DNA of 64,000 nt, from contig QZJN01000003.1 in assembly GCA_003599335.1 (NCBI GenBank), positions 4,654 to 68,653 on the forward strand, given 5' to 3'. The stretch is from Candidatus Parcubacteria bacterium (GTDB lineage: Bacteria; Patescibacteriota; Minisyncoccia; SURF-38). Within the stretch, counting starts at the first letter, position 1, and the number at the start of each line of letters is the position of its first letter. Below the pieces are notes generated by a model, which was not told the DNA's origin, searched no databases, and saw nothing but the letters and a program-made list of their open reading frames with translations. Below are positions 12,032-51,362 of the stretch, in pieces. The position numbers were made by a program, and so were the translations under genes.

Positions 12032-12529
12032 CTATTTGGTTTTGGTTATAACCACATTGAATCCGTTGGGCAAAACTTTTATTTCTTCTTCTGTTTTATA
12101 ATTTTTTAACATTGTAAGGAATTCATTGAATTTTTCTCTGGCAAATCTTTTAACAGCTTTTTCTCTTCCTCTAAGGAGCATTTCAACAGTTACTTTATGA
12201 CCTTCCTCAAAAAACTTGTTTATTTGATTTATTTTAACTTCAAGATCGTGTTTTGAAGCTTTAAAGCTAATGCGCACACTTTTAACCTCGCTTTTTTTCT
12301 GAGCAGATTTGCGGGCGAGTTTAGCCTGCTGATAGAGGTATTTGCCGTAATTTACAAATCTTACAACCGGAGGTTCTGTTTTGGCGGCAACTTCCATCAA
12401 ATCAAAACCCCGCTCTGAAGCGAGGTGCATAGCCTCCTGAGTATTCATTACCCCAAGTTGCTTGCCCGTTTCGTCAATAACCCTGACTTTCGGAGATTTA
12501 ATTTGTTGGTTGATTCTGTGCTGTAAAAT
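12032..12529 (-). CDS. infC: Translation initiation factor IF-3, with probable non-canonical ATT start
   Basis: The ATG-ORF begins at the IF3 linker (MNTQEAMHLASERGFDLMEV...). The in-frame upstream sequence encodes (I)LQHRINQQIKSPKVRVIDETGKQLGV, matching the IF3 N-domain (RINxxIRxxEVRLIxExGEQLGV), and begins at an ATT codon at 12529. Confidence 0.8.
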   Translation of the reverse strand: MLQHRINQQIKSPKVRVIDETGKQLGVMNTQEAMHLASERGFDLMEVAAKTEPPVVRFVNYGKYLYQQAKLARKSAQKKSEVKSVRISFKASKHDLEVKINQINKFFEEGHKVTVEMLLRGREKAVKRFAREKFNEFLTMLKNYKTEEEIKVLPNGFNVVITKTK

Positions 12530-12649
12530 AGCTTTTCTATTATTGATGGAAAAATCCTAACAGGTTTATTGAAATTTAGCAAGTTCCTTTCAATTCCTAT
12601 GTTGTATGTTAAAATTACATTTCGTAAGTATTAATCACAAAAATAATTC

Positions 12650-13135
12650 ATGACCTCAAGAGAATTTTTTATTTATACTATTAAAGACGAATCGCCAAGA
12701 TTTGAAAGGCTATTTAAAGCTTTGCCCGACGATAAGTTGAGTTGGCGACCGCACGAGCGAAATAAAAGCGCTATGGAGCTTATGGTTTCTATGGCCAGCG
12801 AGTTTGCTACAATGCCAGATATTTTGCAAAAAGGTGTTGTTGATTTTGTCGAGCTTAAGCCGGTTGCTTTCAAGAACGGCGAAGAAGCAGCTGATTTTTT
12901 TGTAAAGATGTCCCGACAAAGCGCAGATTTGGCTTCAAAAATGACAGATGATGAATGGGAAGAAAAAGCCGAAATGTTGTTAAAAGGAAAAAGCGAATGG
13001 AAAGCGACAAAAAATATAATGGCCTGGGGCCTTATTTTAGATCTTATCCATCACAGGGGTCAGCTTTCGGTTTATATAAGACCGATGGGCGGGCGCGTTC
13101 CGTCAATTTATGGGCCTTCGGGGGATAGCAAATAG
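12650..13135 (+). CDS. DinB/YfiT-like (DinB_2) putative metal-dependent hydrolase
   Basis: About 160-aa four-helix-bundle protein with the C-terminal HHRGQLSVY motif typical of the DinB family. Confidence 0.55.
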   Translation: MTSREFFIYTIKDESPRFERLFKALPDDKLSWRPHERNKSAMELMVSMASEFATMPDILQKGVVDFVELKPVAFKNGEEAADFFVKMSRQSADLASKMTDDEWEEKAEMLLKGKSEWKATKNIMAWGLILDLIHHRGQLSVYIRPMGGRVPSIYGPSGDSK

Positions 13136-13140
13136 ATAAA

Positions 13141-13860
13141 ATGATTTATAAAGTTAGATTAAAAAATAAAGAAGAAGTGGCTGAAGGCACGATGAGTTTT
13201 CATTTTGAAAAACCCAACAAGTTCGATTTTAAGGCCGGTCAACATATAGAAATTACCCTTATAAATCCAAAAGAAACAGACAAAGAAGGCAACACAAGAT
13301 CATTTTCTTTGGTAAATGCTCCTCATCAAGGTGAGCTCATAATAGCAACCAGGATGCGTGACTCGGCTTTTAAGAGAGCCTTGAAAAATTCATCCCCAGG
13401 ATTTGAGGTTGAGATCGGAGGGCCTTATGGATCAATGACTCTTCATAAAGATTCTTCAAAGCCAGCCGTTTTTCTTGCCGGAGGTATAGGCATAACCCCT
13501 TTTATGAGCATGATAAGATACGCCGCTTATGAGAAACTGCCTCATAGGATATATCTTTTTTATTCAAATCGAAGGCCAGAAGATGCAGCTTTTCTTGATG
13601 AACTTAAGCTGATGGAAGGGCAAAACAAAAATTATAGATTTATCGGAACAATGACCGATATGCAGAAATCAAATCATGATTGGCAAGGAGAGAGGGGGTA
13701 CATAAATGAAGGAATGTTCTCCAAATACATTGGTGATTTAGATAAGCCCATATATTATATTGCCGGACCACCAGCGATGGTTAAGGCTTTGAATGAAATG
13801 TTGGTTGCTACTGGCGTGAGTGAAGATAATATTAGGTTTGAAGAATTTGCAGGGTATTGA
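13141..13860 (+). CDS. Ferredoxin-NADP reductase-like FAD/NAD(P)-binding oxidoreductase
   Basis: FAD-binding RSFSL (RxYS-type) motif, a GGIGITPF NAD-binding glycine motif and a C-terminal YIAGPPAMV block. Confidence 0.6.
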   Translation: MIYKVRLKNKEEVAEGTMSFHFEKPNKFDFKAGQHIEITLINPKETDKEGNTRSFSLVNAPHQGELIIATRMRDSAFKRALKNSSPGFEVEIGGPYGSMTLHKDSSKPAVFLAGGIGITPFMSMIRYAAYEKLPHRIYLFYSNRRPEDAAFLDELKLMEGQNKNYRFIGTMTDMQKSNHDWQGERGYINEGMFSKYIGDLDKPIYYIAGPPAMVKALNEMLVATGVSEDNIRFEEFAGY

Positions 13861-13943
13861 CACTACTAATTATTTGTGATATAGATATTTTGTATTGATA
13901 TCAAATCAAGGAGGGGGCTTTGAATTCAATCAAGGAAAGGGTA

Positions 13944-14522
13944 ATGGCTTTGAGGCAAGAGTATCGCTGCGTGCCTTTCGCGCGGTTCACCGAAATAGTT
14001 TTTGAAATCGGCCGCGATGTCGTTTCCAGGGGCGGCAGCGAGGAAGATTGGAATGTCTTGAGGGCGCTTCTTGAGGAAGCCAAGGCAGAAAGCCTCAAGG
14101 AGCGTCGGGCGGAAGAACAAAAGGTTGCGGAGCAGATCGAGAAAATCACCGCTTCCATGTTGCACCGCAAGCTCAAGCTCAATTTGCCCGACGACGTTGA
14201 CCCCGAGCACATCCAGGCCATTTTGGTTTATGGGTTTATCGCTCCCTCGAGCAGCAAGAGATTTGTGGGGAGTAGGTTTCTGCCTGGCGAGCACATCCTC
14301 AAGGATGTGTTCAACAAGCTGGGGCCGAAATTCAACGCTGTGGAGTACCGCGTAGCCTTCAGCTTTCTCGTCAATCACGGGGTTATCCGCGAGCGTTCCA
14401 GGCGCACCACGGTTTACTCCATGAGTGTCAACGAGGGGTCTTCGGAGCTGACCGACTGGGGCATTCAAATCGTTCGTTCGTGCAAGCAGTTTATGCACGA
14501 GCAACACAACCACAACAAATAG
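13944..14522 (+). CDS. GC-rich (about 57%) orphan hypothetical protein
   Basis: Coding-like ORF with a strong compositional contrast to its neighbours. RBS-like AAGGAAAGGG precedes the ATG at 13944 (the track ORF starts earlier, at TTG 13920). Strong terminator follows. The antisense ORF 13926..14513 is interpreted as a shadow ORF. Confidence 0.45.
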   Translation: MALRQEYRCVPFARFTEIVFEIGRDVVSRGGSEEDWNVLRALLEEAKAESLKERRAEEQKVAEQIEKITASMLHRKLKLNLPDDVDPEHIQAILVYGFIAPSSSKRFVGSRFLPGEHILKDVFNKLGPKFNAVEYRVAFSFLVNHGVIRERSRRTTVYSMSVNEGSSELTDWGIQIVRSCKQFMHEQHNHNK

Positions 14523-14532
14523 TTCTTGGCCC

Positions 14533-14578
14533 TGGGGCCTCGTCTAAATCGTAAGATGAGGCCCTGTTTTTTATTTTA
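14533..14578. terminator. Bidirectional rho-independent terminator between the convergent GC-rich orphan gene and pyrG
   Basis: GGGGCCTCGTC..GATGAGGCCC stem followed by TGTTTTTTATTTT. Confidence 0.6.
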
Positions 14579-16214
14579 CTATACGTTTTTTTGAGGCAGC
14601 TTTTATAAAAGAAAAATAGATCGGGTGAGGAAATAAAGGCCGCGATTTAAATTCGGGGTGAAACTGGGTGCCTAAAAAGAAAGGATGATCCGCAAGTTCA
14701 AATATTTCAACCAAAGCTCCTTTTGGCGAAAGCCCCGAGAACAAAGCCCCCTTTTTTTCAAAAGCAATGCGGTATTTATTGTTGAATTCATAACGATGGC
14801 GATGACGTTCTTTTATTGGTGTTTTTATTTTAAATTTGGCGTAAGCTTTTTGGGCCAGAGATTTATCTTTTAAATGACAAGGATAAGCGCCAAGCCTCAT
14901 CGTGCCGCCAAAATGGTTTTTGGCGAGATGCCTCAATTGTTCCGGGATTAAATCAATTACGGGGTGGGGCGTTTTTGGATTGATTTCTTTTGTGTTTGCG
15001 CCTTTTAATTTCAAGACGTTTCGGGCAAATTCAATAACAGCCATTTGCATGCCATAACATATTCCAAGATAAGGAATTTTGTTGACCCTGGCGAAATGTA
15101 CTGCCGAAATTTTTCCTTCCACACCGCGTTCCCCGAAACCACCAGGTATCAGAATGCCATCGTAATTTTTAAGTTCCTTCAGTTTTGTTTTGGATTTTTC
15201 AAATTCAGTGGAATCAATCCAGCTTAAAATGGGCTTTAGGTTTTGAGCCCAAGCAGCGTGTTTTAGGGCTTCTATCAAAGATATATATGAGTCTGAAAAT
15301 GTGAAATCGCCGCTTTTAAAATATTTGCCGACGATAGCTATTTTTACTTCTTTTTTAAAACCTTTAATTTTTGTCGTAAGACGCTTCCAGCTTTTTAAAT
15401 CTTTGGTTTGGGATTTTATTTTAAGTTTTTTAAGAATTTTTGAGCCAAGGCCATCTCGTTCGAAATTAAGAGGAATTTCGTAAATATTCGTCACGTCCGG
15501 AGCCGAGATTACATCTTCTTCGCGGACTCCGCAGAAAGTTGCGAGTTTTCTTTTGCGGGGTATATCAATTGGTTGGTTGGAGCGGCCAATTATAAAATCG
15601 GGCTGAACTCCGGCCGAATTTAACAAATGAGCGGCTGTCTGGGTTGGTTTTGTTTTCATCTCGCCGATTTTTGCAGGAACCGGCAAAAAACTTACCAAAA
15701 TAAAAACAACATCCGACGGATGTTTAAGCTTGAGCATTCTACCGGCTTCTATAAAAAGAAGATTTTGGTATTCTCCGACAGTGCCGCCGATTTCAACGAC
15801 AACAACTTTGGCTTTTGTTTTGCGCGCAGCAATGTTCAATCGTCTGATTATCTCTTCGGGAATGTGAGGCACGGCTTCAACGCATTTTCCGCCATATCCC
15901 AAGGCTCGTTCTTTTTCTATCACGGCCCTGTAAACCCTGCCGGTCGTCATATAGTTCGTTGAGAGAATATTTTGGTCTAAAAATCTTTCGTAATTTCCTA
16001 TATCTTGGTCTGTTTCATCGCCATCTTCGGTCACAAAGACCTCTCCATGTTCTGTCGGGTTCATTGTGCCGGCGTCAACGTTTAAATACGGATCTATTTT
16101 TACGGCCGTTACCGGTACACCCTTGCTTTGTAAAATTTTGGCTATAGAAGCGACCGTGGTGCCTTTGCCAACGCCAGACATTACCCCTCCAACAACAAAA
16201 ATATACTTAACCAT
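14571..16214 (-). CDS. pyrG: CTP synthase
   Basis: MVKYIFVVGGVMSGVGKG N-terminal P-loop-like signature. C-terminal glutamine amidotransferase (GICYGMQ, HPEF). Start placed at MVKYIF (16214) rather than the upstream ATG. Confidence 0.9.
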   Translation of the reverse strand: MVKYIFVVGGVMSGVGKGTTVASIAKILQSKGVPVTAVKIDPYLNVDAGTMNPTEHGEVFVTEDGDETDQDIGNYERFLDQNILSTNYMTTGRVYRAVIEKERALGYGGKCVEAVPHIPEEIIRRLNIAARKTKAKVVVVEIGGTVGEYQNLLFIEAGRMLKLKHPSDVVFILVSFLPVPAKIGEMKTKPTQTAAHLLNSAGVQPDFIIGRSNQPIDIPRKRKLATFCGVREEDVISAPDVTNIYEIPLNFERDGLGSKILKKLKIKSQTKDLKSWKRLTTKIKGFKKEVKIAIVGKYFKSGDFTFSDSYISLIEALKHAAWAQNLKPILSWIDSTEFEKSKTKLKELKNYDGILIPGGFGERGVEGKISAVHFARVNKIPYLGICYGMQMAVIEFARNVLKLKGANTKEINPKTPHPVIDLIPEQLRHLAKNHFGGTMRLGAYPCHLKDKSLAQKAYAKFKIKTPIKERHRHRYEFNNKYRIAFEKKGALFSGLSPKGALVEIFELADHPFFLGTQFHPEFKSRPLFPHPIYFSFIKAASKKRIVK

Positions 16215-16290
16215 CCTTTCTATTTTGCCAGCTTTGAGGAATTTGGGCAAAAAAGAAAAAGGCCAATTTGGGTTAGCCTTTTTCTATCTG

Positions 16291-16309
16291 GTGGAGATGG
16301 GCGGAGTTG
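16291..16309. repeat. 19-nt direct repeat of the tmRNA 3' end (att-like footprint)
   Basis: GTGGAGATGGGCGGAGTTG at 16291-16309 is identical to 16490-16508, the complement of the tmRNA T-arm/acceptor 3' end. Confidence 0.7.
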
Positions 16310-16489
16310 CCTACAACTCTCACCAACTTCCGTTGGCTCGGTCGCAGGCCCGCCTCGCGGTTTGGCTCGCCTGTCGCTCGCCAAACATCGCTCCGGCATT
16401 CAACTCGGCTCGCGAGTAAAGCAGTTTACTCGCTTCTCATCTCCACATAAATCAAAAATTACCCAGCATTTATTGGGTAATTTTTGCTT
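16310..16489 (-). mobile_element. 180-bp GC-rich remnant segment between the tmRNA 3' end and its displaced 19-nt copy; carries the hairpin GCGAGTAAA..TTTACTCGC and the core GAGTTGAATGCCGGA shared with the tRNA-Leu-associated element
   Basis: Hairpin at 16412-16433 (plus-strand coordinates). The 15-nt core at 16392-16406 is the reverse complement of 51199-51213. A tmRNA terminator hairpin lies at 16462-16490. Confidence 0.5.
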
Positions 16490-16786
16490 GTGGAGATGGG
16501 CGGAGTTGAACCGCCGTCCGGAAGAAGCTTGATGACAAAGTTTCTACGAATGTACCCCCGTACGTGGGAGAGACGCTAAAAAGTTCAGTGCCTGCTTGCG
16601 CAGGCGCGCTCAATATATAACACCGGTTTTCTGCCCATTGAGCATCAGCAGGCCGATGGGCTTACTTAAGCGTAAGCCAGTGCCAAGTTTTTGTTGGCAG
16701 TTATAAGTTTTGCACCAGATTTACAAGTTAGTGCAGCTTGATTCGCGCTTTGTCAGAACATTCATCCGTCGAAGCCCGACATCCCC
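16488..16786 (-). ncRNA. ssrA: tmRNA (SsrA), one-piece
   Basis: Minus-strand 5' GGGGAUGUCGGGCUUCGACGG, like the canonical tmRNA 5' end. The 3' end is ..GGACGGCGGUUCAACUCCGCCCAUCUCCA(CA), with a G3:U acceptor pair. The internal tag reading frame is GCC AAC AAA AAC UUG GCA CUG GCU UAC GCU UAA, giving ANKNLALAYA. smpB is immediately upstream. Confidence 0.85.
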
Positions 16787-16787
16787 T

Positions 16788-17234
16788 CTATATTTTTAAT
16801 GTTCGTTTAATCTCTCTTTGAGTTTCTCTTTTTCTGATAGCTTCTCTTTTGTCTGATTTCTTCTTGCCTTTGGCTAAAGCTAACTCAAGCTTTACCAAAC
16901 CGTGCTTATTATAAAAGCTTAAAGGGATCAAAGTCAAGCCGCCTTGGCGCATTAAACCGATGAGTTTTGCAATTTCTTTTTTGTGCATCAGTAGTTTTCT
17001 TGAGCGGGTTGGATTGTAACCTTGCGGAGGAGTCTGGATTTGAGAAGGACTTAAATGCGCGTTCACCAAAAAAAGTTCTTTTCCGTGAGGAATGATAAAA
17101 GCATGAGATATATCAACCCTGCCTTCTTTGATCGCCTTTACTTCAAAGCCGTTCAAGGCTAAACCGGCCTCGAATGTTTCAAGGATTTGATAGTCGAATC
17201 TGGCTTTCCGATTTGTCGCAAACTCTTTTTTCAC
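16788..17234 (-). CDS. smpB: SsrA-binding protein SmpB
   Basis: MKKEFATNRKARFDYQILETFEAGLALNGFEVKA.. canonical SmpB N-terminus. Confidence 0.9.
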   Translation of the reverse strand: MKKEFATNRKARFDYQILETFEAGLALNGFEVKAIKEGRVDISHAFIIPHGKELFLVNAHLSPSQIQTPPQGYNPTRSRKLLMHKKEIAKLIGLMRQGGLTLIPLSFYNKHGLVKLELALAKGKKKSDKREAIRKRETQREIKRTLKI

Positions 17235-43000: not shown

Positions 43001-46000
43001 ATGTTTTCGGAAGCTAGAAATACAAATTCTTTAATTTTTCTTTCATTTTTAGTCGGTGTATTTTTATTTGCCGGTTCGCAAGCTTATGCCGCAACTTCGG
43101 CAACCTCCGTACCTGATATTGCAACATCTTTGGAATCTTATGGAGGAAGGGTTTATAGCCAAACAACGAACAGTAGTACAATTTCAGGTTATTTTGACTA
43201 CAGTCCTTCAACCGACAGTCGTAATATTCCAAATCCTCCCCCAAATTCGGTTTTGGTTGAGGTTGGCTATGGTTCGGATGAACATGATTATCATATGGAA
43301 GTTCAGTTTGGTAAATTTGTCGCCGATCCTGTTACTGGCGCTTGGACAGTTCAATACACAACAAGTCAAATAAGATCAGCCGGTGGCGAAAGAAATGGTT
43401 ACTGGGTTAAGTTAGAGCCAAAAGATTTTACAGGCAATGTCGTTCAAAATGCCTATCTTACGCGTTGGCGATGGAATTCCAGCGGTACTAGCGGCGGTCG
43501 CCCGGGGGATGATAGTAGCCCCGGGGGTGTTTGCGCGCATGCCATGTATCAGAGATACGATCCGACAACCTTTCAGCTTATCGGAAGCAAAATAGAGGGA
43601 GGAAATTGTTCCAAGCGAGGGTATCAGTTAAACAGTAGCTGGATTAGGGGTTTTGTTACGGCGCCTCCTGGCGAATTTATCGTAAGCATTAAAAACTTTA
43701 TTTTTGGAGACGACGCAAAAATGCGAGGCGGCATTGCAGATTGGCGCAAACTCGTTAATTCAACTCTGAACGCAAGATATGTTTCGGATAACCTTCCTAC
43801 AAATTTATCTGTAAATACTCCTTATAGCGGAACGATGACAATCAGAAATTCCGGCAATATTGTTTGGGAATCTGACAATATAATTTCAAAAAGCGGAGAT
43901 TGTTCAACTTTTGATCAGACCGCGCCCGATCCAAATACAGAGTGTCATGAATACTATACAGTTGCCTCGACAGATTTTAAATTAAAACGTTTAGACAGTT
44001 CTCCAATCACCATAACAAGCCCAATGGAATATAGGCGGGTTGTTGACAGGAAATATCAGTGGGTATTGATTCCTTTTGCCTGCGATCCTCCTCCGCCTCC
44101 GGATCCTTGCGATTCAAACCCAAGCGATCCGTTGTGTGATATTTATCAAATTTACTTTAATTCCGAAAGGAGATTTACGCAGAAAGATGGTTTGTTTTCA
44201 ATCCCAAAGGCTCACGCCCAGTCGTGCGATGAGTGGAGCGTTCAGGTTTCCGATACACCGATTTTTAATGTCACAAACGTGGCTCCAAATGATCAGGTTG
44301 ACTTCCCAATTTCGTTTACAACAACAGCTTCGGCCGGAACATATAACTTGCAGTTTCGTATGGTCAGGTCAACAACCAATACCGAATTTGGAGATATAAT
44401 TACGGTTCCTGTTACGGTAACCGCCCCGACGGGCACCATTACTGTAAATTCCGTTAACCAACAGACTTTAAACGCAGCCCCATCGGATTGGACAATCACA
44501 GGGCCTTCAACATTTACCGATTCGGGTTTAGGCCAAAAAACTTATACTACCGCCATAGGTGATGGACAATATACTTTTTCTCCTGTTCCTGGGAGTGGAG
44601 GGCCTTTGTATACTTTGGATTCGGTTAAAGCTATTTCAGGAAATTATGCCAAAATTAAAAGAGAAGGTTTTTCCTTTGGATTTTTGAAAGATTGGGTTGG
44701 TTCTCTTGCTCGGGCGTTTGATACGTCGGGGTCTTCTTGCGGGAGCAACTCTTGCTGGCTGGCAAGCGGAAATTCTGTTACGTTTCAGGTTGCTTGGATT
44801 CCTGAAGCAACGCTTGATCTTTCTCCAGCCTCGCTTAATTTGACCGGCACAATTTATACGCCAAATCCAACAGGTATTGTTTCCGTGCAAAATAATGGAG
44901 CACCGGGTTCAACCTTAAATTGGTCAATTTCCGGGGCAAGCCAAGGATGGCTTTCGGGTTCTCCGGCATCGGGAAACGGCGTTGCCGCTGGTTCTTCCCA
45001 AAATTCAACGATTACGGCAAGCATCAGTGGTTTGTCAGCGGGAACTTACAACGGAAATACGGTTACGTTTGCCGGCACCTCTCAGCCTGGTAATACTGCA
45101 GTGATGAGTGGTCCAAAATCTCTCACCGTCAATCTCACTGTCAACAATCCCGCTCCTTCTATTACTTCGCTTAATCCGAGCAACGCAATTGCAGGCTCTG
45201 GCGGATTTACCCTAACTGTTAACGGTAATAATTTTGTGAATGGTTCGGTTGTGAGGTGGAACGGTTCTAATCGAACAACCACATTTGTTAATCAAAACCA
45301 ATTAACTGCGATTATCAATGCCGCTGACATTGCTTCTCCTGGAACATTCCCTGTAACGGTTTTTAATGCCGCTCCCGGAGGAGGAACTTCAAATTCGGTC
45401 AACCTTACCGTTAGCCAAGTGACCGCCGACATCGACGCCAACGGTTCAGACGGACCTATAACGATTCCTTACAACAGCGCAGCAACAATTACCTGGGCAT
45501 CTTCAAATGCGACAAGTTGTTCCGTTGCGCCAACCGGCTGGACAGGAACATCAGGTTCACAATCAACGGGCAACTTAACCTCTGGTCAAACTTATACCCT
45601 CACCTGCACCAACGGTTCGGTAAATGTTCAAGATATTGTGACTGTCAATGTGCAGCCAAATTCTCAGCCATCTCCTGGAACGGCAACTCATACATCTCCG
45701 GGATCTCAACCAGGAGGATGGTGCTCAAACGATAATAATTGGATTATAAATTGGACTTTTTCAGATACCGATGGCGATACCCAAAATACCTATCAGATCC
45801 AGATAGACAATTCCGGTAATACTTTTCCAAGCCCAGAAATTGATCAGACTCCTCCTCCGGTAAACACCTCAAATTCTTATACAGCCCAAGGGTTAACTTA
45901 TAACGCCACGACTTATTGGTATCGAGTTCGCGTGCAAGATAGTGTTGGTCAGTGGTCGGGTTGGAGCAATGTCGGCAGTTTTACCACAAACAACAACGCT

Positions 46001-46345
46001 TATCCTTTTTCTGATTTTTCTTGGTCTCCTGTAAATCCGGGGGCAGATGTTGTTGTTCAATTTACCGACCAGAGCGTATGTTATGATCAAAATAATAATA
46101 CAATCGCTTGCACGAGCTGGTTGTGGAATTTTGGAGATGGTTTTACTTCGCCAGATCAAAACCCAAGGCATATTTATTCCGCCTCAAGCAGTCCTCCCAG
46201 CAATCCTTTGCCTCCGGCGAATTATAATGTGAGTTTGACATCCACAGGCGGTTCGCCAACCTCATTTAGTTGCCAGGCGACAAAGACGATAAATGTCGGC
46301 ACCTATGTGCCTTTGCCAAGCTGGCGAGAAGTCGCACCGCTGTAA
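43001..46345 (+). CDS. Giant secreted multi-domain surface protein, 1114 aa (CARDB/BACON-like beta domains, IPT/TIG, FN3-like and C-terminal PKD domain)
   Basis: Signal peptide. IPT/TIG block (PAPSITSLNPS..GGFTLTVNGNNF). FN3-like WYRVRVQDSVGQWSGWSN. PKD signature WLWNFGDGFTSPDQNPRHIY..NYNVSLT. Higher GC than the core genome. Confidence 0.6.
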   Translation: MFSEARNTNSLIFLSFLVGVFLFAGSQAYAATSATSVPDIATSLESYGGRVYSQTTNSSTISGYFDYSPSTDSRNIPNPPPNSVLVEVGYGSDEHDYHMEVQFGKFVADPVTGAWTVQYTTSQIRSAGGERNGYWVKLEPKDFTGNVVQNAYLTRWRWNSSGTSGGRPGDDSSPGGVCAHAMYQRYDPTTFQLIGSKIEGGNCSKRGYQLNSSWIRGFVTAPPGEFIVSIKNFIFGDDAKMRGGIADWRKLVNSTLNARYVSDNLPTNLSVNTPYSGTMTIRNSGNIVWESDNIISKSGDCSTFDQTAPDPNTECHEYYTVASTDFKLKRLDSSPITITSPMEYRRVVDRKYQWVLIPFACDPPPPPDPCDSNPSDPLCDIYQIYFNSERRFTQKDGLFSIPKAHAQSCDEWSVQVSDTPIFNVTNVAPNDQVDFPISFTTTASAGTYNLQFRMVRSTTNTEFGDIITVPVTVTAPTGTITVNSVNQQTLNAAPSDWTITGPSTFTDSGLGQKTYTTAIGDGQYTFSPVPGSGGPLYTLDSVKAISGNYAKIKREGFSFGFLKDWVGSLARAFDTSGSSCGSNSCWLASGNSVTFQVAWIPEATLDLSPASLNLTGTIYTPNPTGIVSVQNNGAPGSTLNWSISGASQGWLSGSPASGNGVAAGSSQNSTITASISGLSAGTYNGNTVTFAGTSQPGNTAVMSGPKSLTVNLTVNNPAPSITSLNPSNAIAGSGGFTLTVNGNNFVNGSVVRWNGSNRTTTFVNQNQLTAIINAADIASPGTFPVTVFNAAPGGGTSNSVNLTVSQVTADIDANGSDGPITIPYNSAATITWASSNATSCSVAPTGWTGTSGSQSTGNLTSGQTYTLTCTNGSVNVQDIVTVNVQPNSQPSPGTATHTSPGSQPGGWCSNDNNWIINWTFSDTDGDTQNTYQIQIDNSGNTFPSPEIDQTPPPVNTSNSYTAQGLTYNATTYWYRVRVQDSVGQWSGWSNVGSFTTNNNAYPFSDFSWSPVNPGADVVVQFTDQSVCYDQNNNTIACTSWLWNFGDGFTSPDQNPRHIYSASSSPPSNPLPPANYNVSLTSTGGSPTSFSCQATKTINVGTYVPLPSWREVAPL

Positions 46346-49084: not shown

Positions 49085-49624
49085 ATGATAATTTCAGATT
49101 CGGCTTTAACTTTAAAAATCCATTTTTTGGCGGGGAATTTTATTTGGCTTGATTGGATAATTGTTTTTTTTGGGGGTTATTTTGAATATTTACTATTAGC
49201 TTTCTTGTTGGGTTTATTGCTTTTGAGCAAAAATAGCAGGATTCAATATTGGAGAATGATTGCGGTCGGTTTGATTGCGGCTTTATTTTCAAGATTTGCG
49301 GTTGCTGAAACGATAAGGGCTTTGTATCCTCGTGCGAGACCTTTTGAGATTTTTGAATTTCAGCCTCTCATACTTCACGAGACAACGTCGGGATTTCCTT
49401 CGGGTCACGCCAGTTTCTATTTTGCTTTGGCGACTATAATTTTTCTTTATGATCGTAAGCTTGGTGGTTGGTTTTTTGTCGGAGCAACTTTAATTTCTTT
49501 TGCCAGGGTTGCGGCCGGGATTCATTTTTTGGGCGATATATTACTTGGATTTTCGGTTGGAGTTTTAAGCGCAGTTTTTATTTATAAACTCGCTTGTAAA
49601 AGATTTCCAAATTTGGCAAAATAA
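49085..49624 (+). CDS. PAP2 family membrane phosphatase (undecaprenyl-diphosphatase-like)
   Basis: PAP2 motifs: YPRARP, PSGHAS, and SFARVAAGIHFLGD (SRxxxxxHxxxD). Confidence 0.7.
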   Translation: MIISDSALTLKIHFLAGNFIWLDWIIVFFGGYFEYLLLAFLLGLLLLSKNSRIQYWRMIAVGLIAALFSRFAVAETIRALYPRARPFEIFEFQPLILHETTSGFPSGHASFYFALATIIFLYDRKLGGWFFVGATLISFARVAAGIHFLGDILLGFSVGVLSAVFIYKLACKRFPNLAK

Positions 49625-49747
49625 ACTTTGCGTTTTTGGGCAGGTGGGCGATAAGCGAATAAATGCAGCTTATCGCTAGAGCCAAAAGGCGATTGGGCCG
49701 ACACCTGCCACAGTTTTTTGATCGAGGCTTTGCCGAGAAGTACATGC

Positions 49748-49830
49748 GGGCAGGTGGCGGAATGGCAGACGCGCTGGACTCAAAATCCAGTGAGAGTAAT
49801 CTCGTGAGGGTTCAACTCCCTCCCTGCCCA
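49748..49830 (+). tRNA. tRNA-Leu (anticodon CAA), class II with long variable arm; CCA not encoded
   Basis: GGGCAGG acceptor stem pairing with CCTGCCC then A. D-arm GUGGCGGAAUGGCAGACGCG resembles Leu tRNAs. Anticodon stem-loop CTGGA-CTCAAAA-TCCAG. Long variable arm. T-arm GAGGG-TTCAACT-CCCTC. Confidence 0.8.
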
Positions 49831-49831
49831 C
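49813..49831 (+). repeat. tRNA-Leu 3'-terminal 19 nt (CAACTCCCTCCCTGCCCAC), directly repeated at 51269-51287 (att-like)
   Basis: Exact 19-nt identity between the two positions. Confidence 0.7.
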
Positions 49832-49952: not shown

Positions 49953-49990
49953 CGTCCCGCCAGGAAAATCCTAACGGGACGTTTTTTGTT
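49953..49990. terminator. Bidirectional hairpin terminator (ACGTCCCG..CGGGACGT followed by TTTTTT)
   Basis: Perfect 8-bp stem with a T-run. Confidence 0.55.
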
Positions 49991-50822
49991 AATGAAAGAA
50001 CGATTGGGTTTTTGGCACCAGTTTCAACACGCGGATGGAGAGGATCTCGTAATTGAGTACTCCCCACAAAGCGCCGGCAAGTCCGCCGATCAATGCGTTG
50101 CCAAAGTAAAACCCGATGGCCGCGCCAATCGCACCATCCACGCCGCACAGCAAACGGATTTCCGAGTGGATGAGACGGAACCATGTGGCAGAAAATATTG
50201 CCACTGCGTGAATGAAACCGATCAACCCTGACGCGATCACGTTTCTCTTTTGCCACAGGAATCGCGGCAAGTGATAAAAGACGGCCCGCGGCACCAAATA
50301 CAGGAAGAATTTGGGGAGTATCCAGAAATAGACTCTGAATGGGCTGAGGTTAAATAATCCTCCAGCCCTAAATGTCTCTTTGAGTGTATGAACATTCCCA
50401 TGCGGAGTTATGAACAAGGCAAAAAAGAGAGGAAACCCCAACGTGATCAGTGGAAACAAGAATACTATCGGATTAGGGTTTCCCCATAGCATTATTGTTA
50501 AGAGAGAAGCGAAGGGAAATCCAACAATCGTTAGCAGGTCGCCTGCAAGATTGAGGTATGCTTTTCCCCAAGCTCTCCAGAATACCGCGTCCGGCCGCAA
50601 AGTGCGCATCTCATTCCATAATTTGGGAAATGAGTTGCGCATTTTATTCCACGCTTTGGGAACTGCCGCGATCACTTTGTTGAATTCATATGCCAGGTAT
50701 CCGATGGCAAAGCCGGCAATCATGCCGACCCACCAGAACATGGGTGTCATCTGCAGCGCAACGAGCGCGCCGATGAACCCGCCGATGAAACAAGACAGAA
50801 ACACTTTGGCCGTGTGGCTCAT
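49989..50822 (-). CDS. GC-rich polytopic membrane protein, hypothetical (cargo of the tRNA-Leu-associated element)
   Basis: 277 aa, about 8 TM helices, GC well above neighbours. No recognisable family. Confidence 0.4.
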   Translation of the reverse strand: MSHTAKVFLSCFIGGFIGALVALQMTPMFWWVGMIAGFAIGYLAYEFNKVIAAVPKAWNKMRNSFPKLWNEMRTLRPDAVFWRAWGKAYLNLAGDLLTIVGFPFASLLTIMLWGNPNPIVFLFPLITLGFPLFFALFITPHGNVHTLKETFRAGGLFNLSPFRVYFWILPKFFLYLVPRAVFYHLPRFLWQKRNVIASGLIGFIHAVAIFSATWFRLIHSEIRLLCGVDGAIGAAIGFYFGNALIGGLAGALWGVLNYEILSIRVLKLVPKTQSFFH

Positions 50823-51167
50823 AGAGCCCTCCTTTATAAAGTTTGGGTGTCTTTGGGAAATTGAAAAGAGCGAATGTTGGAATTAATATATAACTAAACA
50901 ATATATTTGTCAAGTCAGGTTAGCATAGTGCTACGTAACATAAAGCACGCACCCTTATGAAGGTGTTCAATTTTTTGTACTCTGAAGGTGAAAATTTTTA
51001 GTAGGGAATTACTGGTCCTGACCAGTCATTTTTGCTTTGAGGTTCTCCAACATAGATGAACTTTTGCGGCGGTTCAGCTTCTTTTGGATCTTTGAGCATC
51101 GGGATTACAAATCCAGGATTTTGGATGAAAAAGGTTCGAACGTCATTGAGAGTGGCCCACAACTAAA

Positions 51168-51213
51168 AAATACGAGTAAATTTATTTACTCGTATTTGGA
51201 GTTGAATGCCGGA
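51168..51213 (+). repeat. Conserved module: 14-bp perfect palindromic hairpin AAATACGAGTAAAT/ATTTACTCGTATTT followed by GGAGTTGAATGCCGGA
   Basis: Homologous to the module at 16392-16433 on the opposite strand: same CGAGTAAA..TTTACTCG hairpin core and identical 15-nt GAGTTGAATGCCGGA. Confidence 0.55.
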
Positions 51214-51362
51214 ATCATGCCTTGGCAGATGAGGCGGGGTCGCGAGTTCACAAAGTGAAACTCGTGACCAACTCCCTCCCTGCCCACAATCTAAATTATT
51301 GTTTATCCAAGGGGCCTGAGCCGCTTTTTTGTCATTTTTTTACGTGTTAAGATTGTTATTGT

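Follow-up and report, generated by a model that had tools for sequence, protein, structure and literature searches.

Why does the 3' end of a tmRNA gene stand a second time a short distance beyond the gene itself? The question is raised by a 64-kb stretch of DNA from a Candidatus Parcubacteria bacterium (contig QZJN01000003.1; the whole stretch of 64,000 nucleotides is called the window below), in which the last part of ssrA, the gene of transfer-messenger RNA (tmRNA), is found again downstream. The first-pass annotation of the window had interpreted the two copies as att-like ends left by an integrase-type element, decayed or non-autonomous. Our data indicate that the repeats enclose a conserved and structured module of about 100 nt, which recurs next to tmRNA and tRNA-Leu genes both in the window and in metagenome contigs of other bacteria. 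This module could not be matched to any described family and is most likely a small mobile insertion.

Repeated gene ends at ssrA and tRNA-Leu(CAA)

The repeat GTGGAGATGGGCGGAGTTG occurs in two exact copies, at 16291-16309 and 16490-16508, and the window holds no third match with up to three mismatches, while shuffled sequences are expected to give 0.00. Read on the minus strand the repeat is CAACTCCGCCCATCTCCAC, and at 16490-16508 it comprises C56 of the tmRNA T-loop, the 3' strand of the T-stem, the 3' strand of the acceptor stem, A73 and C74. The gene that contains this copy is genuine: it matches the Rfam model RF00023 over its full length (122.9 bits, E=1.6e-47, gathering score 47), ARAGORN reads the tag peptide ANKNLALAYA from it, and smpB is its direct upstream neighbour. 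Downstream of ssrA lies pyrG. The copies are offset by 199 nt and the segment between them is 180 nt long, and both values agree with the first-pass annotation, as does the elevated GC content (0.63 in the module, 0.405 in the window). The absence of an open reading frame (ORF), also noted at that time, needs a slight qualification: the segment carries no integrase and no credible ORF, but short mechanical ORFs (59, 47 and 56 aa) overlap it.

Within the segment the module of the tmRNA locus can be divided into a 5' strand GAGTTG(AA), which is antisense to the T-loop and forms one side of helix P1, a P2 arm GCC..GGC with a variable hairpin, the conserved GAGGCGGG, and a P3 arm GCCTGCGAC../..GTTGTAGGC. 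Its 3' end reads GTTGTAGG, and the first 6 nt of the distal repeat supply the 3' strand of P1. The 9-bp hairpin reported earlier is indeed present at 16412-16433, and a near-identical one stands before the module of the tRNA-Leu locus. An uninterrupted ssrA site would be expected to read ...GGCGGTT followed by CAACTCCGCCCATCTCCACCAGATAG, with nt 55 joined to the flank of the distal repeat.

The second locus is marked by the 15-nt core GAGTTGAATGCCGGA, which is found at 16392-16406 and again at 51199-51213. The latter position is 1.37 kb downstream of tRNA-Leu(CAA), shortly before another copy of the 3' end of that tRNA. This recurrence, already pointed out in the first-pass annotation, is not incidental: the last 19 nt of the tRNA-Leu gene itself recur beside it. 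The core truly links both sites. The order of elements is common to the two loci: a hairpin (arms ACGAGTAAA..TTTACTCGT at tRNA-Leu, GCGAGTAAA..TTTACTCGC at tmRNA), a spacer of 5-6 bases, GAGTTGAATGCCGGA, the variable hairpin, GAGGCGGG, a second hairpin ending in GTGAC, then CAAC and the remaining end of the tRNA or tmRNA (t(m)RNA) gene. Both repeats begin at C56 directly after GGTT and stop at C74. The features of both loci are collected in Table 1.

Table 1. Features of the two module-bearing loci in the window
Feature	Position	Strand	Basis or remark
ssrA (tmRNA), intact one-piece gene	16488..16786	-	ARAGORN 16490-16786; Rfam RF00023, full length
smpB, upstream partner of ssrA	16788..17234	-	translation; 100% match to Candidatus Parcubacteria SmpB; PF01668
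Proximal repeat, tmRNA C56 to C74 (CAACTCCGCCCATCTCCAC), continuing ...CACAAG	16490..16508	-	
Distal repeat, CAACTCCGCCCATCTCCAC at 16291-16309 plus CA, so that the copy encodes CCA	16289..16309	-	
Terminator-like hairpin directly 3' of tmRNA, within duplicated unit U	16453..16486	-	terminator scan; trailer alignment
Another terminator-like hairpin, 3' of the distal repeat, duplicating the first trailer in diverged form	16254..16285	-	terminator scan; alignment
GTGGAGATG, antisense to the 3' strand of the tmRNA acceptor	16438..16446	-	can form a 9-bp stem with either repeat copy
9-bp hairpin GCGAGTAAA-CTGC-TTTACTCGC, 5 nt before the module	16412..16433	-	
Conserved module, tmRNA locus	16310..16406	-	covariance-model match 106.6 bits; consensus structure, covariation
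tRNA-Leu(CAA)	49748..49831	+	ARAGORN, Rfam; its 3' 19 nt (49813-49831, CAACTCCCTCCCTGCCCAC) are the proximal repeat
277-aa membrane ORF between tRNA-Leu and module	49989..50822	-	cargo, or second nested insertion
Tentative third, decayed tRNA-Leu end with flank (GCCCACAACTAAA vs GCCCACAATCTAAA)	51155..51167	+	9/500 shuffles score as high; weak
Hairpin ACGAGTAAA..TTTACTCGT in front of the module at tRNA-Leu	51168..51197	+	homologous to 16412-16433; scores as a minus-strand terminator
Second module copy (GGAGTTGAATGCCGGA ... GAGGCGGGG ... GTCGCGAG/CTCGTGAC)	51198..51268	+	covariance-model match 96.3 bits; alignment; fold z=-7.6
Distal repeat, exact 19 nt of the tRNA-Leu 3' end	51269..51287	+	0.01 expected by chance

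A module family that mirrors the host T-arm

Contigs of relatives, labelled L001-L155, were fetched with SmpB as an anchor, by a metagenome pattern scan, or by similarity to EF-P or to a cargo protein. Eight distinct loci share one architecture, at tmRNA in the window, L005, L147, L130 and L128, and at tRNA-Leu with the anticodon CAA or CAG in the window, L139 and L140. Outside the window there are at least six such loci on Parcubacteria- and WWE3-like metagenome contigs, and all of them lie at tmRNA or tRNA-Leu. The SmpB-anchored contigs provided a clear homologue in L005, after ssrA and a terminator. The pattern scan returned, beside four chance matches, true members in L139 (identical to L141 and L144; tRNA-Leu(CAA)), L140 (identical to L142 and L149; tRNA-Leu(CAG)) and L147 (tmRNA). 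A covariance model built from six distinct members recovered these at 94-108 bits and picked up two divergent members directly after tmRNA, namely L130 (56.6 bits) and, with visual confirmation, L128 (11.9 bits). EF-P relatives put L139/L141 near candidate division WWE3, therefore the module family is not limited to Parcubacteria. The neighbouring genes, named by eye, look like housekeeping genes: dnaB and efp in L141, sugar-isomerase-like and RNase J-like genes in L142. Comparison of near-identical strains across the module gave too few differences to be informative.

The module resembles no catalogued RNA or mobile element in the collections searched. Against Rfam 15, with E values up to 10, the region 16150-16900 gave noise and weak tmRNA_permuted matches only, and the modules of L147, L005 and L149 likewise matched no Rfam family at permissive thresholds. 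No match was returned by blastn of the module against INPHARED phages and PLSDB plasmids; in IMG/VR four pattern scans gave nothing or chance matches, and the covariance model found no module in the retrieved contigs. Among the matches listed for a loose contig scan with the pattern GAGTTGAATGCCGN{17,46}GAGGCG, all were chance hits in GC-rich coding DNA.

Two minor observations were made on these contigs. Small ORFs with a GIY-YIG nuclease domain (79-87 aa) adjoin ssrA in L005 (811-1074) and L132 (3955-4194), one before and one after the gene, with no established link to the module. In L004 (3083-3130) the contig ends after the tmRNA (...CTCCACCA) in AGCTGAATCGTGCCGCGCGGAGCGCGGCACTCCAC, which bears a faint likeness to the beginning of a variant module, but too little sequence follows for a decision.

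The layout common to the eight loci consists of nt 1-55 of the t(m)RNA, a unit U, a linker, the module and a second copy of the unit, U'. Unit U begins at C56, takes in the rest of the gene and continues into the trailer, often with a terminator. The t(m)RNA gene thus stays intact and keeps its terminator, and its 3' part is present once more on the far side of the module. The modules are GC-rich and about 90-110 nt long, the insert is usually about 150-250 bp, and in seven of the eight loci the module begins about 40-130 nt from the 3' end of the t(m)RNA. In every locus the distal copy opens with C56, directly behind GGTT (T55 in L130).

The repeats of the other members measure 19-24 nt or more, and local alignments of the trailers reveal that in most loci the duplication continues past the gene end, over 26-76 nt in total. 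It covers 65/67 nt in L139, 30 nt in L140, 26 nt in L147, about 55 diverged nt in L128, and about 76 nt in L130, where U' lacks about 23 nt of the tmRNA part and a downstream box is identical at 34/35 positions. In the window it amounts to 19 exact nt followed by a related but diverged terminator at tmRNA, and to 19 nt at tRNA-Leu, where the weak third copy at 51155-51167 may imply nested insertions. The alignments are longer than the gene part, therefore the 19-nt repeat, which the first-pass annotation had noticed, is only the best-kept part of a larger duplication. That U and U' share trailer sequence favours copying of U from the target or spread within a population, and so does L130, whose tmRNA is correct and non-hybrid although the host of a closely related module differs strongly in its acceptor stem. 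By contrast, trailer repeats in L141 that are missing from the empty site of L155, a sister contig described below, suggest nested events. As a separate observation on L130 (3001-3992), its tmRNA is inverted relative to smpB, the two genes converge with the module between them, and the 34/35-nt box (GTGGAATGAGAAAACCAAT.TATTGGTTT) stands once on each side of the module.

The 5' arm of the module, (G)GGAGTTGAA, is antisense to the local T-loop and to the 3' strand of the T-stem, and pairs with the start of U' as P1. Its conserved part GAGTTGAA is the exact antisense of the T-loop TTCAACTC, and the bases upstream of it follow the T-stem of each host gene. The matched stretch reaches 12 nt in L140 (TTCAACTCTCCC), 11 nt in L139 (TTCAACTCCCA) and L128 (GTTCAACTCCG), 10 nt in L147 (TTCAACTCCC) and L130 (TTTCAACACC, including the unusual extra T and the A-for-T change of that gene), and in the window 9 nt at tRNA-Leu (TTCAACTCC) and 8 nt at tmRNA (TTCAACTC). 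Further upstream, three tmRNA-linked members have a box antisense to the acceptor followed by a hairpin, an arrangement that is not general across the family: GTGGAGATG in the window (16438-16446), GTGGAATG in L130 and TTTAGGGTGGAC in L005. The box of the window permits a 9-bp closing stem.

The RNAalifold consensus on the tRNA-sense strand is a three-way junction. In P1 (G)GGAGUU pairs with AACUCC(C), the latter being the start of U'; P2 (GCC..GGC) has two covarying pairs and carries the variable hairpin; P3 (GUCGCG../..CGUGAC) is stacked directly on P1. Standard pairs occupy 93.9% of the alignment cells against 80.5+/-1.9% in column shuffles, and 11 of the 22 pairs are changed on both sides against 4.8+/-1.6; neither value was reached in 500 shuffles, and sliding the partner by 1-3 columns left only 35-44% paired. 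The covariation within this alignment of six sequences is suggestive of structural constraint. One P3 pair is G.U in five of the six members, and in L130 three wobble pairs (GGUGUUGA with UCAAUGCU) maintain P1. For each of the six members tested, the sense strand gives a more stable fold than the complementary strand does, for example at -57.1 vs -45.0, -60.3 vs -48.6 and -52.0 vs -35.3 kcal/mol; the tmRNA element of the window with its flanks folds at -83.5 kcal/mol (z=-8.0), and for the tRNA-Leu copy z is -7.6. Wobble pairing and the difference in stability imply that the folding strand is the one co-oriented with the t(m)RNA, and the predicted fold could be that of RNA or of single-stranded DNA.

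Insertion, RNA or remnant

The distribution of the module is patchy, and empty sites exist in relatives. Among seven distinct ssrA loci reached through SmpB with at least 150 nt of downstream sequence, four carry the module (window, L005, L130, L128), and a covariance search with filters off found none in the other three (L001, L131, L132). The uninterrupted sites that the first-pass annotation had proposed to look for thus exist. In L001, a 70%-identical relative, infC follows ssrA after 160 bp with nothing else between. In L155, the sister of L141 (EF-P 85% identical, same synteny, tRNA-Leu(CAA) differing at 2 of 87 nt), the same kind of search found no module at tRNA-Leu(CAA). One of these two differences lies in the T-loop, which reads TTCGACT in the empty L155 (2706-2792) and TTCAACT in the occupied L141 (2359-2445); it could reflect a target preference or an element that replaces the 3' part of the gene. 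The T-loops of the empty tmRNA sites are TTCAACT in L001 and L132 and TTCGATT in L131. The similarity of the modules does not follow that of their hosts: L005 and L130 have modules 83.5% identical, while their tmRNAs (59.3%) are the least similar pair and their SmpB proteins share 60%. Similarly, the base of P2 in the tmRNA module of the window is identical to that of the tRNA-Leu(CAG) module in L140, whereas the tRNA-Leu copy of the window is less close to it.

Signals for separate transcription of the module were also sought. A terminator lies between tmRNA and module in the window and in three relatives (L147 and L128 judged by eye); L139 and L140 have no canonical or strong terminator between tRNA and module. 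No sigma-70-like promoter (at least 8/12 matches) was found between t(m)RNA and module in any of the eight loci, although promoters of the candidate phyla radiation (CPR) may differ from this consensus. The intervening terminators and the missing sigma-70-like promoter favour a role at the DNA level.

The reading we prefer, with a probability of about 0.45, is that the feature is a non-autonomous, ORF-less, site-specific insertion element of CPR bacteria, which docks in T-loops and is moved in trans. Insertion at the DNA level is favoured because of the direct repeat of the 3' part, the choice of target genes, the empty sites and the lack of a promoter. The element would dock between nt 55 and 56 in the T-loop of tRNA-Leu and tmRNA genes, and the 19-nt repeat would mark the two edges of an insertion of about 200 bp. 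We infer that the folded single strand, in which P1 reproduces the target T-arm duplex, would be the substrate of a recombinase or transposase encoded elsewhere, and that this enzyme would join the folded strand to the T-loop. Unit U may be borne by the element, as an integrase-style attP with a gene-restoring arm, or may arise in situ as a long target duplication. The tRNA-Leu locus indicates that a cargo of one gene can lie within such an insert or next to it. Among known kinds of elements, the feature is best placed as a miniature, ORF-less and structure-bearing form of the integrative elements that target t(m)RNA genes. The att-like signature seen by the first-pass annotation therefore holds in so far as a duplicated 3' segment of the gene brackets an insert, but a plain attL/attR pair does not predict the antisense 5' arm.

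Several points weigh against such an element. Pfam searches of the 50 ORFs in the window revealed no recombinase, transposase, reverse transcriptase or Cas/TnpB protein, nor any integrase or resolvase, so the search for an integrase elsewhere, which the first-pass annotation had suggested, gave none in the window; no recombinase-type gene was seen among the ORFs beside the L141 and L142 modules, which were judged by eye without a family search. No autonomous relative, excised circle or within-population empty allele was found, and IMG/VR, INPHARED and PLSDB gave no match. The two copies in the window are old and diverged, with no recent burst, and apart from the P1 arm the left end of the element has no conserved terminus. 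The covariation rests on 6-8 sequences only, and the strong structure with its wobble pairs fits an RNA function equally well. Finally, the exact match of the distal copy could stem from selection on an RNA or from gene conversion and not from recent insertion.

A broader proposal, which we regard as tentative, is that the module represents either an undescribed class of insertions that finds the T-loop by base pairing of its 5' arm, or a new non-coding RNA. According to its first half, the module and the displaced gene end would form the three-way junction that serves as a single-stranded recombination substrate, and the essential gene would be spared by duplicating or supplying its 3' part and terminator.

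An RNA function taken by itself we judge unlikely, although it would account for the wobble pairs and for the preserved distal copy. The module and the distal t(m)RNA 3' segment would be transcribed together, either as a 3' trailer reached by read-through or starting at an unrecognised promoter, into an RNA with a 5' arm antisense to the T-loop and a 3' tail that repeats the 3' strand of the acceptor (with CCA in several loci). Possible roles would be tRNA-like 3' processing or CCA addition, pairing with the T-arm or the 5' strand of the acceptor in the neighbouring pre-t(m)RNA, or that of a decoy. The GC-rich three-way junction with its compensatory changes and conserved G.U pairs suits an RNA well, as does folding specific to the strand co-oriented with the t(m)RNA. 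In L130 wobbles preserve P1 though the distal copy no longer equals the tmRNA, and at the tmRNA locus of the window and in L128 the distal copy has remained equal to the gene, unlike the trailer beside it, which has diverged. In the window the distal repeat is succeeded by a terminator, a strong terminator between tRNA and module is lacking in L139 and L140, and an alternative fold of both window copies has an acceptor-like closing stem. However, none of the eight loci offers a sigma-70-like promoter, terminators divide tmRNA from module in most tmRNA loci, and the distal copy has decayed in L005, L130 and L128. Additionally, the patchy distribution with empty sites in close relatives, the incongruence between module and host similarity and the lack of an Rfam match are not in line with such an RNA.

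The decayed remnant of the first-pass annotation corresponds to a further explanation: tyrosine-integrase islands would once have resided in ssrA and tRNA-Leu, and the module would be the surviving attR-proximal arm. Direct repeats of a t(m)RNA 3' segment starting in the T-loop are a recognised signature of integrase elements, as Williams reportedly described in 2002, and both genes, tmRNA and tRNA-Leu, count as classic targets of them. Variation marks the ssrA-infC interval as a hot spot, with about 4 kb in the window and extra genes in L128 and L132, and at tRNA-Leu the window and L141 show hints of nested or tandem insertion. In spite of this we consider an inert remnant improbable. The insert is equally small in seven of the eight independent loci, and a large, integrase-bearing element is present at none of the eight. 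If the loci had decayed independently, one would not expect the same stretch of about 100 nt to survive each time, three helices to be kept by compensatory change, or the 5' arm to stay matched to the T-arm of its locus. The uniform small size, the compensatory changes and the mirroring of each host T-arm argue against debris. Structural constraint and preferential folding of the sense strand likewise contradict decay; the non-autonomous character proposed earlier agrees with the lack of an integrase inside, but the segment is the full-size form of a conserved family.

It is very improbable that the module is the scaffold of a guide RNA, with the distal repeat as a 19-24-nt 3' guide that matches the gene after GGTT and an effector encoded elsewhere. 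The structured scaffold on the 5' side of the putative guide, the T-rich GGTT directly before the target and a match that is sharp at C56 on its 5' side and variable at its 3' end recall such systems. Contrastingly, the first 6-10 nt of the would-be guide are paired in P1, the match runs into the trailer for up to 65-76 nt, which is more than a guide needs, no sigma-70-like promoter precedes it, and no effector (TnpB, IscB, Cas12) was found among the window ORFs or the neighbours of the other loci (L141/L142 by eye). A chance repeat or an assembly artefact, for which only the metagenomic origin of the contig could speak, may be dismissed, with zero chance matches expected and the same architecture present twice in the window and in independent assemblies from other samples.

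Other candidate classes were rejected on structural grounds. Group I introns have about 200 nt or more, a P3-P9 core, a 5' exon ending in U and an intron ending in G; the module has about 100 nt, ends in C, U or A before CAAC and matches no Rfam intron. Group II and archaeal-type introns were ruled out on size and splice-site rules, and hammerhead or other small ribozymes on the lack of an Rfam match and of a conserved core. The closing stem recalls the topology of a retron non-coding RNA, for which the reverse transcriptase is lacking. The idea of a second or permuted tmRNA was likewise rejected, as the weak RF04321 matches stem from the true T-arm together with a complementary 5' strand. A target duplication of fixed length does not agree with lengths of 19 to 76 nt. 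A miniature inverted-repeat transposable element (MITE) does not fit a duplication that varies over this range, a sole inverted repeat that is the 6-12-bp P1 and varies with the target, or two diverged copies in 64 kb.

Known systems and the surroundings of the two loci

Among the closest parallels are the tyrosine-integrase islands and prophages that occupy the 3' ends of tRNA or tmRNA genes, together with derivatives lacking an integrase, the cis-mobilizable elements (CIMEs). They share with the module the tmRNA and tRNA-Leu targets, the 3'-segment repeats starting in the T-loop, the preservation of the gene by a replacement 3' end, the patchy and sometimes repeatedly used sites and, in the case of CIMEs, the lack of an own recombinase. 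In contrast to them, the inserts studied here are gene-less and only about 150-250 bp long, a three-way junction abuts the distal repeat, the 5' arm covaries with the T-loop, trailer and terminator are often duplicated, and no integrase-bearing relative was found.

Integron cassettes offer another comparison. They are units with one ORF or none that end in a structured site (attC, 60-140 nt) folded from one strand, whose structure is kept above its sequence, whose outer helix mimics the target duplex, whose terminal loop varies and whose recombinase is encoded outside the unit. An attC site is recognised by 5'-RYYYAAC...GTTRRRY-3' closing an imperfect hairpin, with IntI or a cassette array nearby. 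The module has the GTT/AAC polarity reversed relative to R''/R' (5'-GTTGAAT...CAAC-3'), forms a three-way junction and not a bulged hairpin, targets the T-loop and not attI, and has long repeats; with no integrase (IntI) and no cassette array it was rejected as an attC site.

Elements of the IS200/IS605 group, together with PATEs and REPINs, are mobilised as single strands with hairpin ends, select the cleavage or target site by pairing with a short internal guide beside the hairpin and have non-autonomous copies moved in trans. However, they make no target duplication, use guides of 4-5 nt and have characteristic left and right hairpins, whereas the module pairs over 6-12 nt, with the T-arm. 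With no TnpA/TnpB ORFs in the window and a long direct duplication present, IS200/IS605 elements and their miniatures were rejected as well. In its logic of a folded single-strand substrate the proposed element is analogous to attC sites, to the attP of CTX phage and to IS200/IS605 ends, though membership in each of these families fails on a feature tested.

Homing guides of V-K CRISPR-transposons and the omega-RNAs of TnpB carry the guide 3' of a structured scaffold. The module resembles a homing CRISPR RNA in having a scaffold followed by about 17-24 nt that reproduce the 3' part of a neighbouring tRNA gene, with GGTT before the target. It differs in that a transposon, Cas12k and TnpB are all lacking, the scaffold itself pairs with the seed of the guide and the match runs into the trailer. 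RNAs of the 3' external transcribed spacer type (3'ETS-leuZ of E. coli) demonstrate that a functional RNA can come from a tRNA-Leu trailer; these are short, Hfq-bound trailers before a terminator, with no duplicated tRNA end and no three-way junction.

Mobile DNA docks mainly at tRNA and tmRNA genes. The known occupants of these sites are islands of kilobase size with an integrase of their own, and we know of no smaller one. If mobile, a gene-less module of about 100 nt would be the smallest known occupant of these docking sites. Target recognition by base pairing with a folded single strand occurs with the attC sites of integrons, with CTX phage and with IS200/IS605, but to our knowledge it is not known for integration into T-loops. 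The 5' arm that mirrors the host T-arm points to such recognition and to a folded single-strand substrate; if the base-pairing-guided reading is true, the module would belong to a nucleic-acid-guided, gene-sparing integration system in the CPR. If it is an RNA, it would be a new conserved non-coding RNA tied to trans-translation and tRNA-Leu. The covariance model and the target rule provide a handle for seeking the enzyme that is still missing; in CPR genomes few mobile elements can be recognised. In practical terms, the duplicated gene ends can mislead the annotation of tRNA and tmRNA genes and of islands in metagenome-assembled CPR genomes.

Around ssrA, a near-consensus sigma-70-like promoter (TTGACT-18-TATAAT, 11/12) lies at 16908-16937 on the minus strand, within the 3' part of smpB and about 120 nt upstream of the mature tmRNA 5' end, and is possibly the ssrA promoter. 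The ssrA-infC interval (12032-16490), compared above with the 160 bp of L001, contains the module, pyrG, an ORF with no Pfam match (13920-14522), an FAD/NAD oxidoreductase gene and a DinB-family gene.

At the tRNA-Leu locus, the 277-aa ORF has promoter-like and terminator-like sites of its own and gave no match in a Pfam search. Its relatives form a family confined to Patescibacteria and elsewhere adjoin CD-NTase/Cap15, a replication-relaxation protein or a serine-recombinase-like gene, surroundings typical of mobile elements or defence that speak for the insertion reading. In L150 (806-2130) the homologue stands beside a CBASS-like pair (CD-NTase C-terminal domain and Cap15), and in L153 (335-5358) beside a replication-relaxation protein, an Abi-like Hypoth_Ymh protein and the serine-recombinase-like gene. 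On the contigs fetched for these relatives, genes of a mobile-element or defence type are present, but neither a tRNA nor a module. Upstream of tRNA-Leu, a hairpin at 49641-49716 on the plus strand (z=-3.9) starts with a 10-nt copy of the tRNA 5' end (GGGCAGGTGG) and is closed by CACCTGCC, with a T-run behind it; it is probably the terminator of the PAP2 gene at 49085-49624. Kinship of this hairpin to the tmRNA element was rejected as weak or due to chance (10-mer E=3.6, poor pairwise alignment).

Elsewhere in the window, a 601-aa protein encoded at 39326-41131 on the plus strand has unusually strong matches to immunoglobulin domains of the eukaryote type (Ig_3 1.7e-33, I-set 5e-33), and it is adjoined by a 1114-aa Ig-like protein at 43001-46345.

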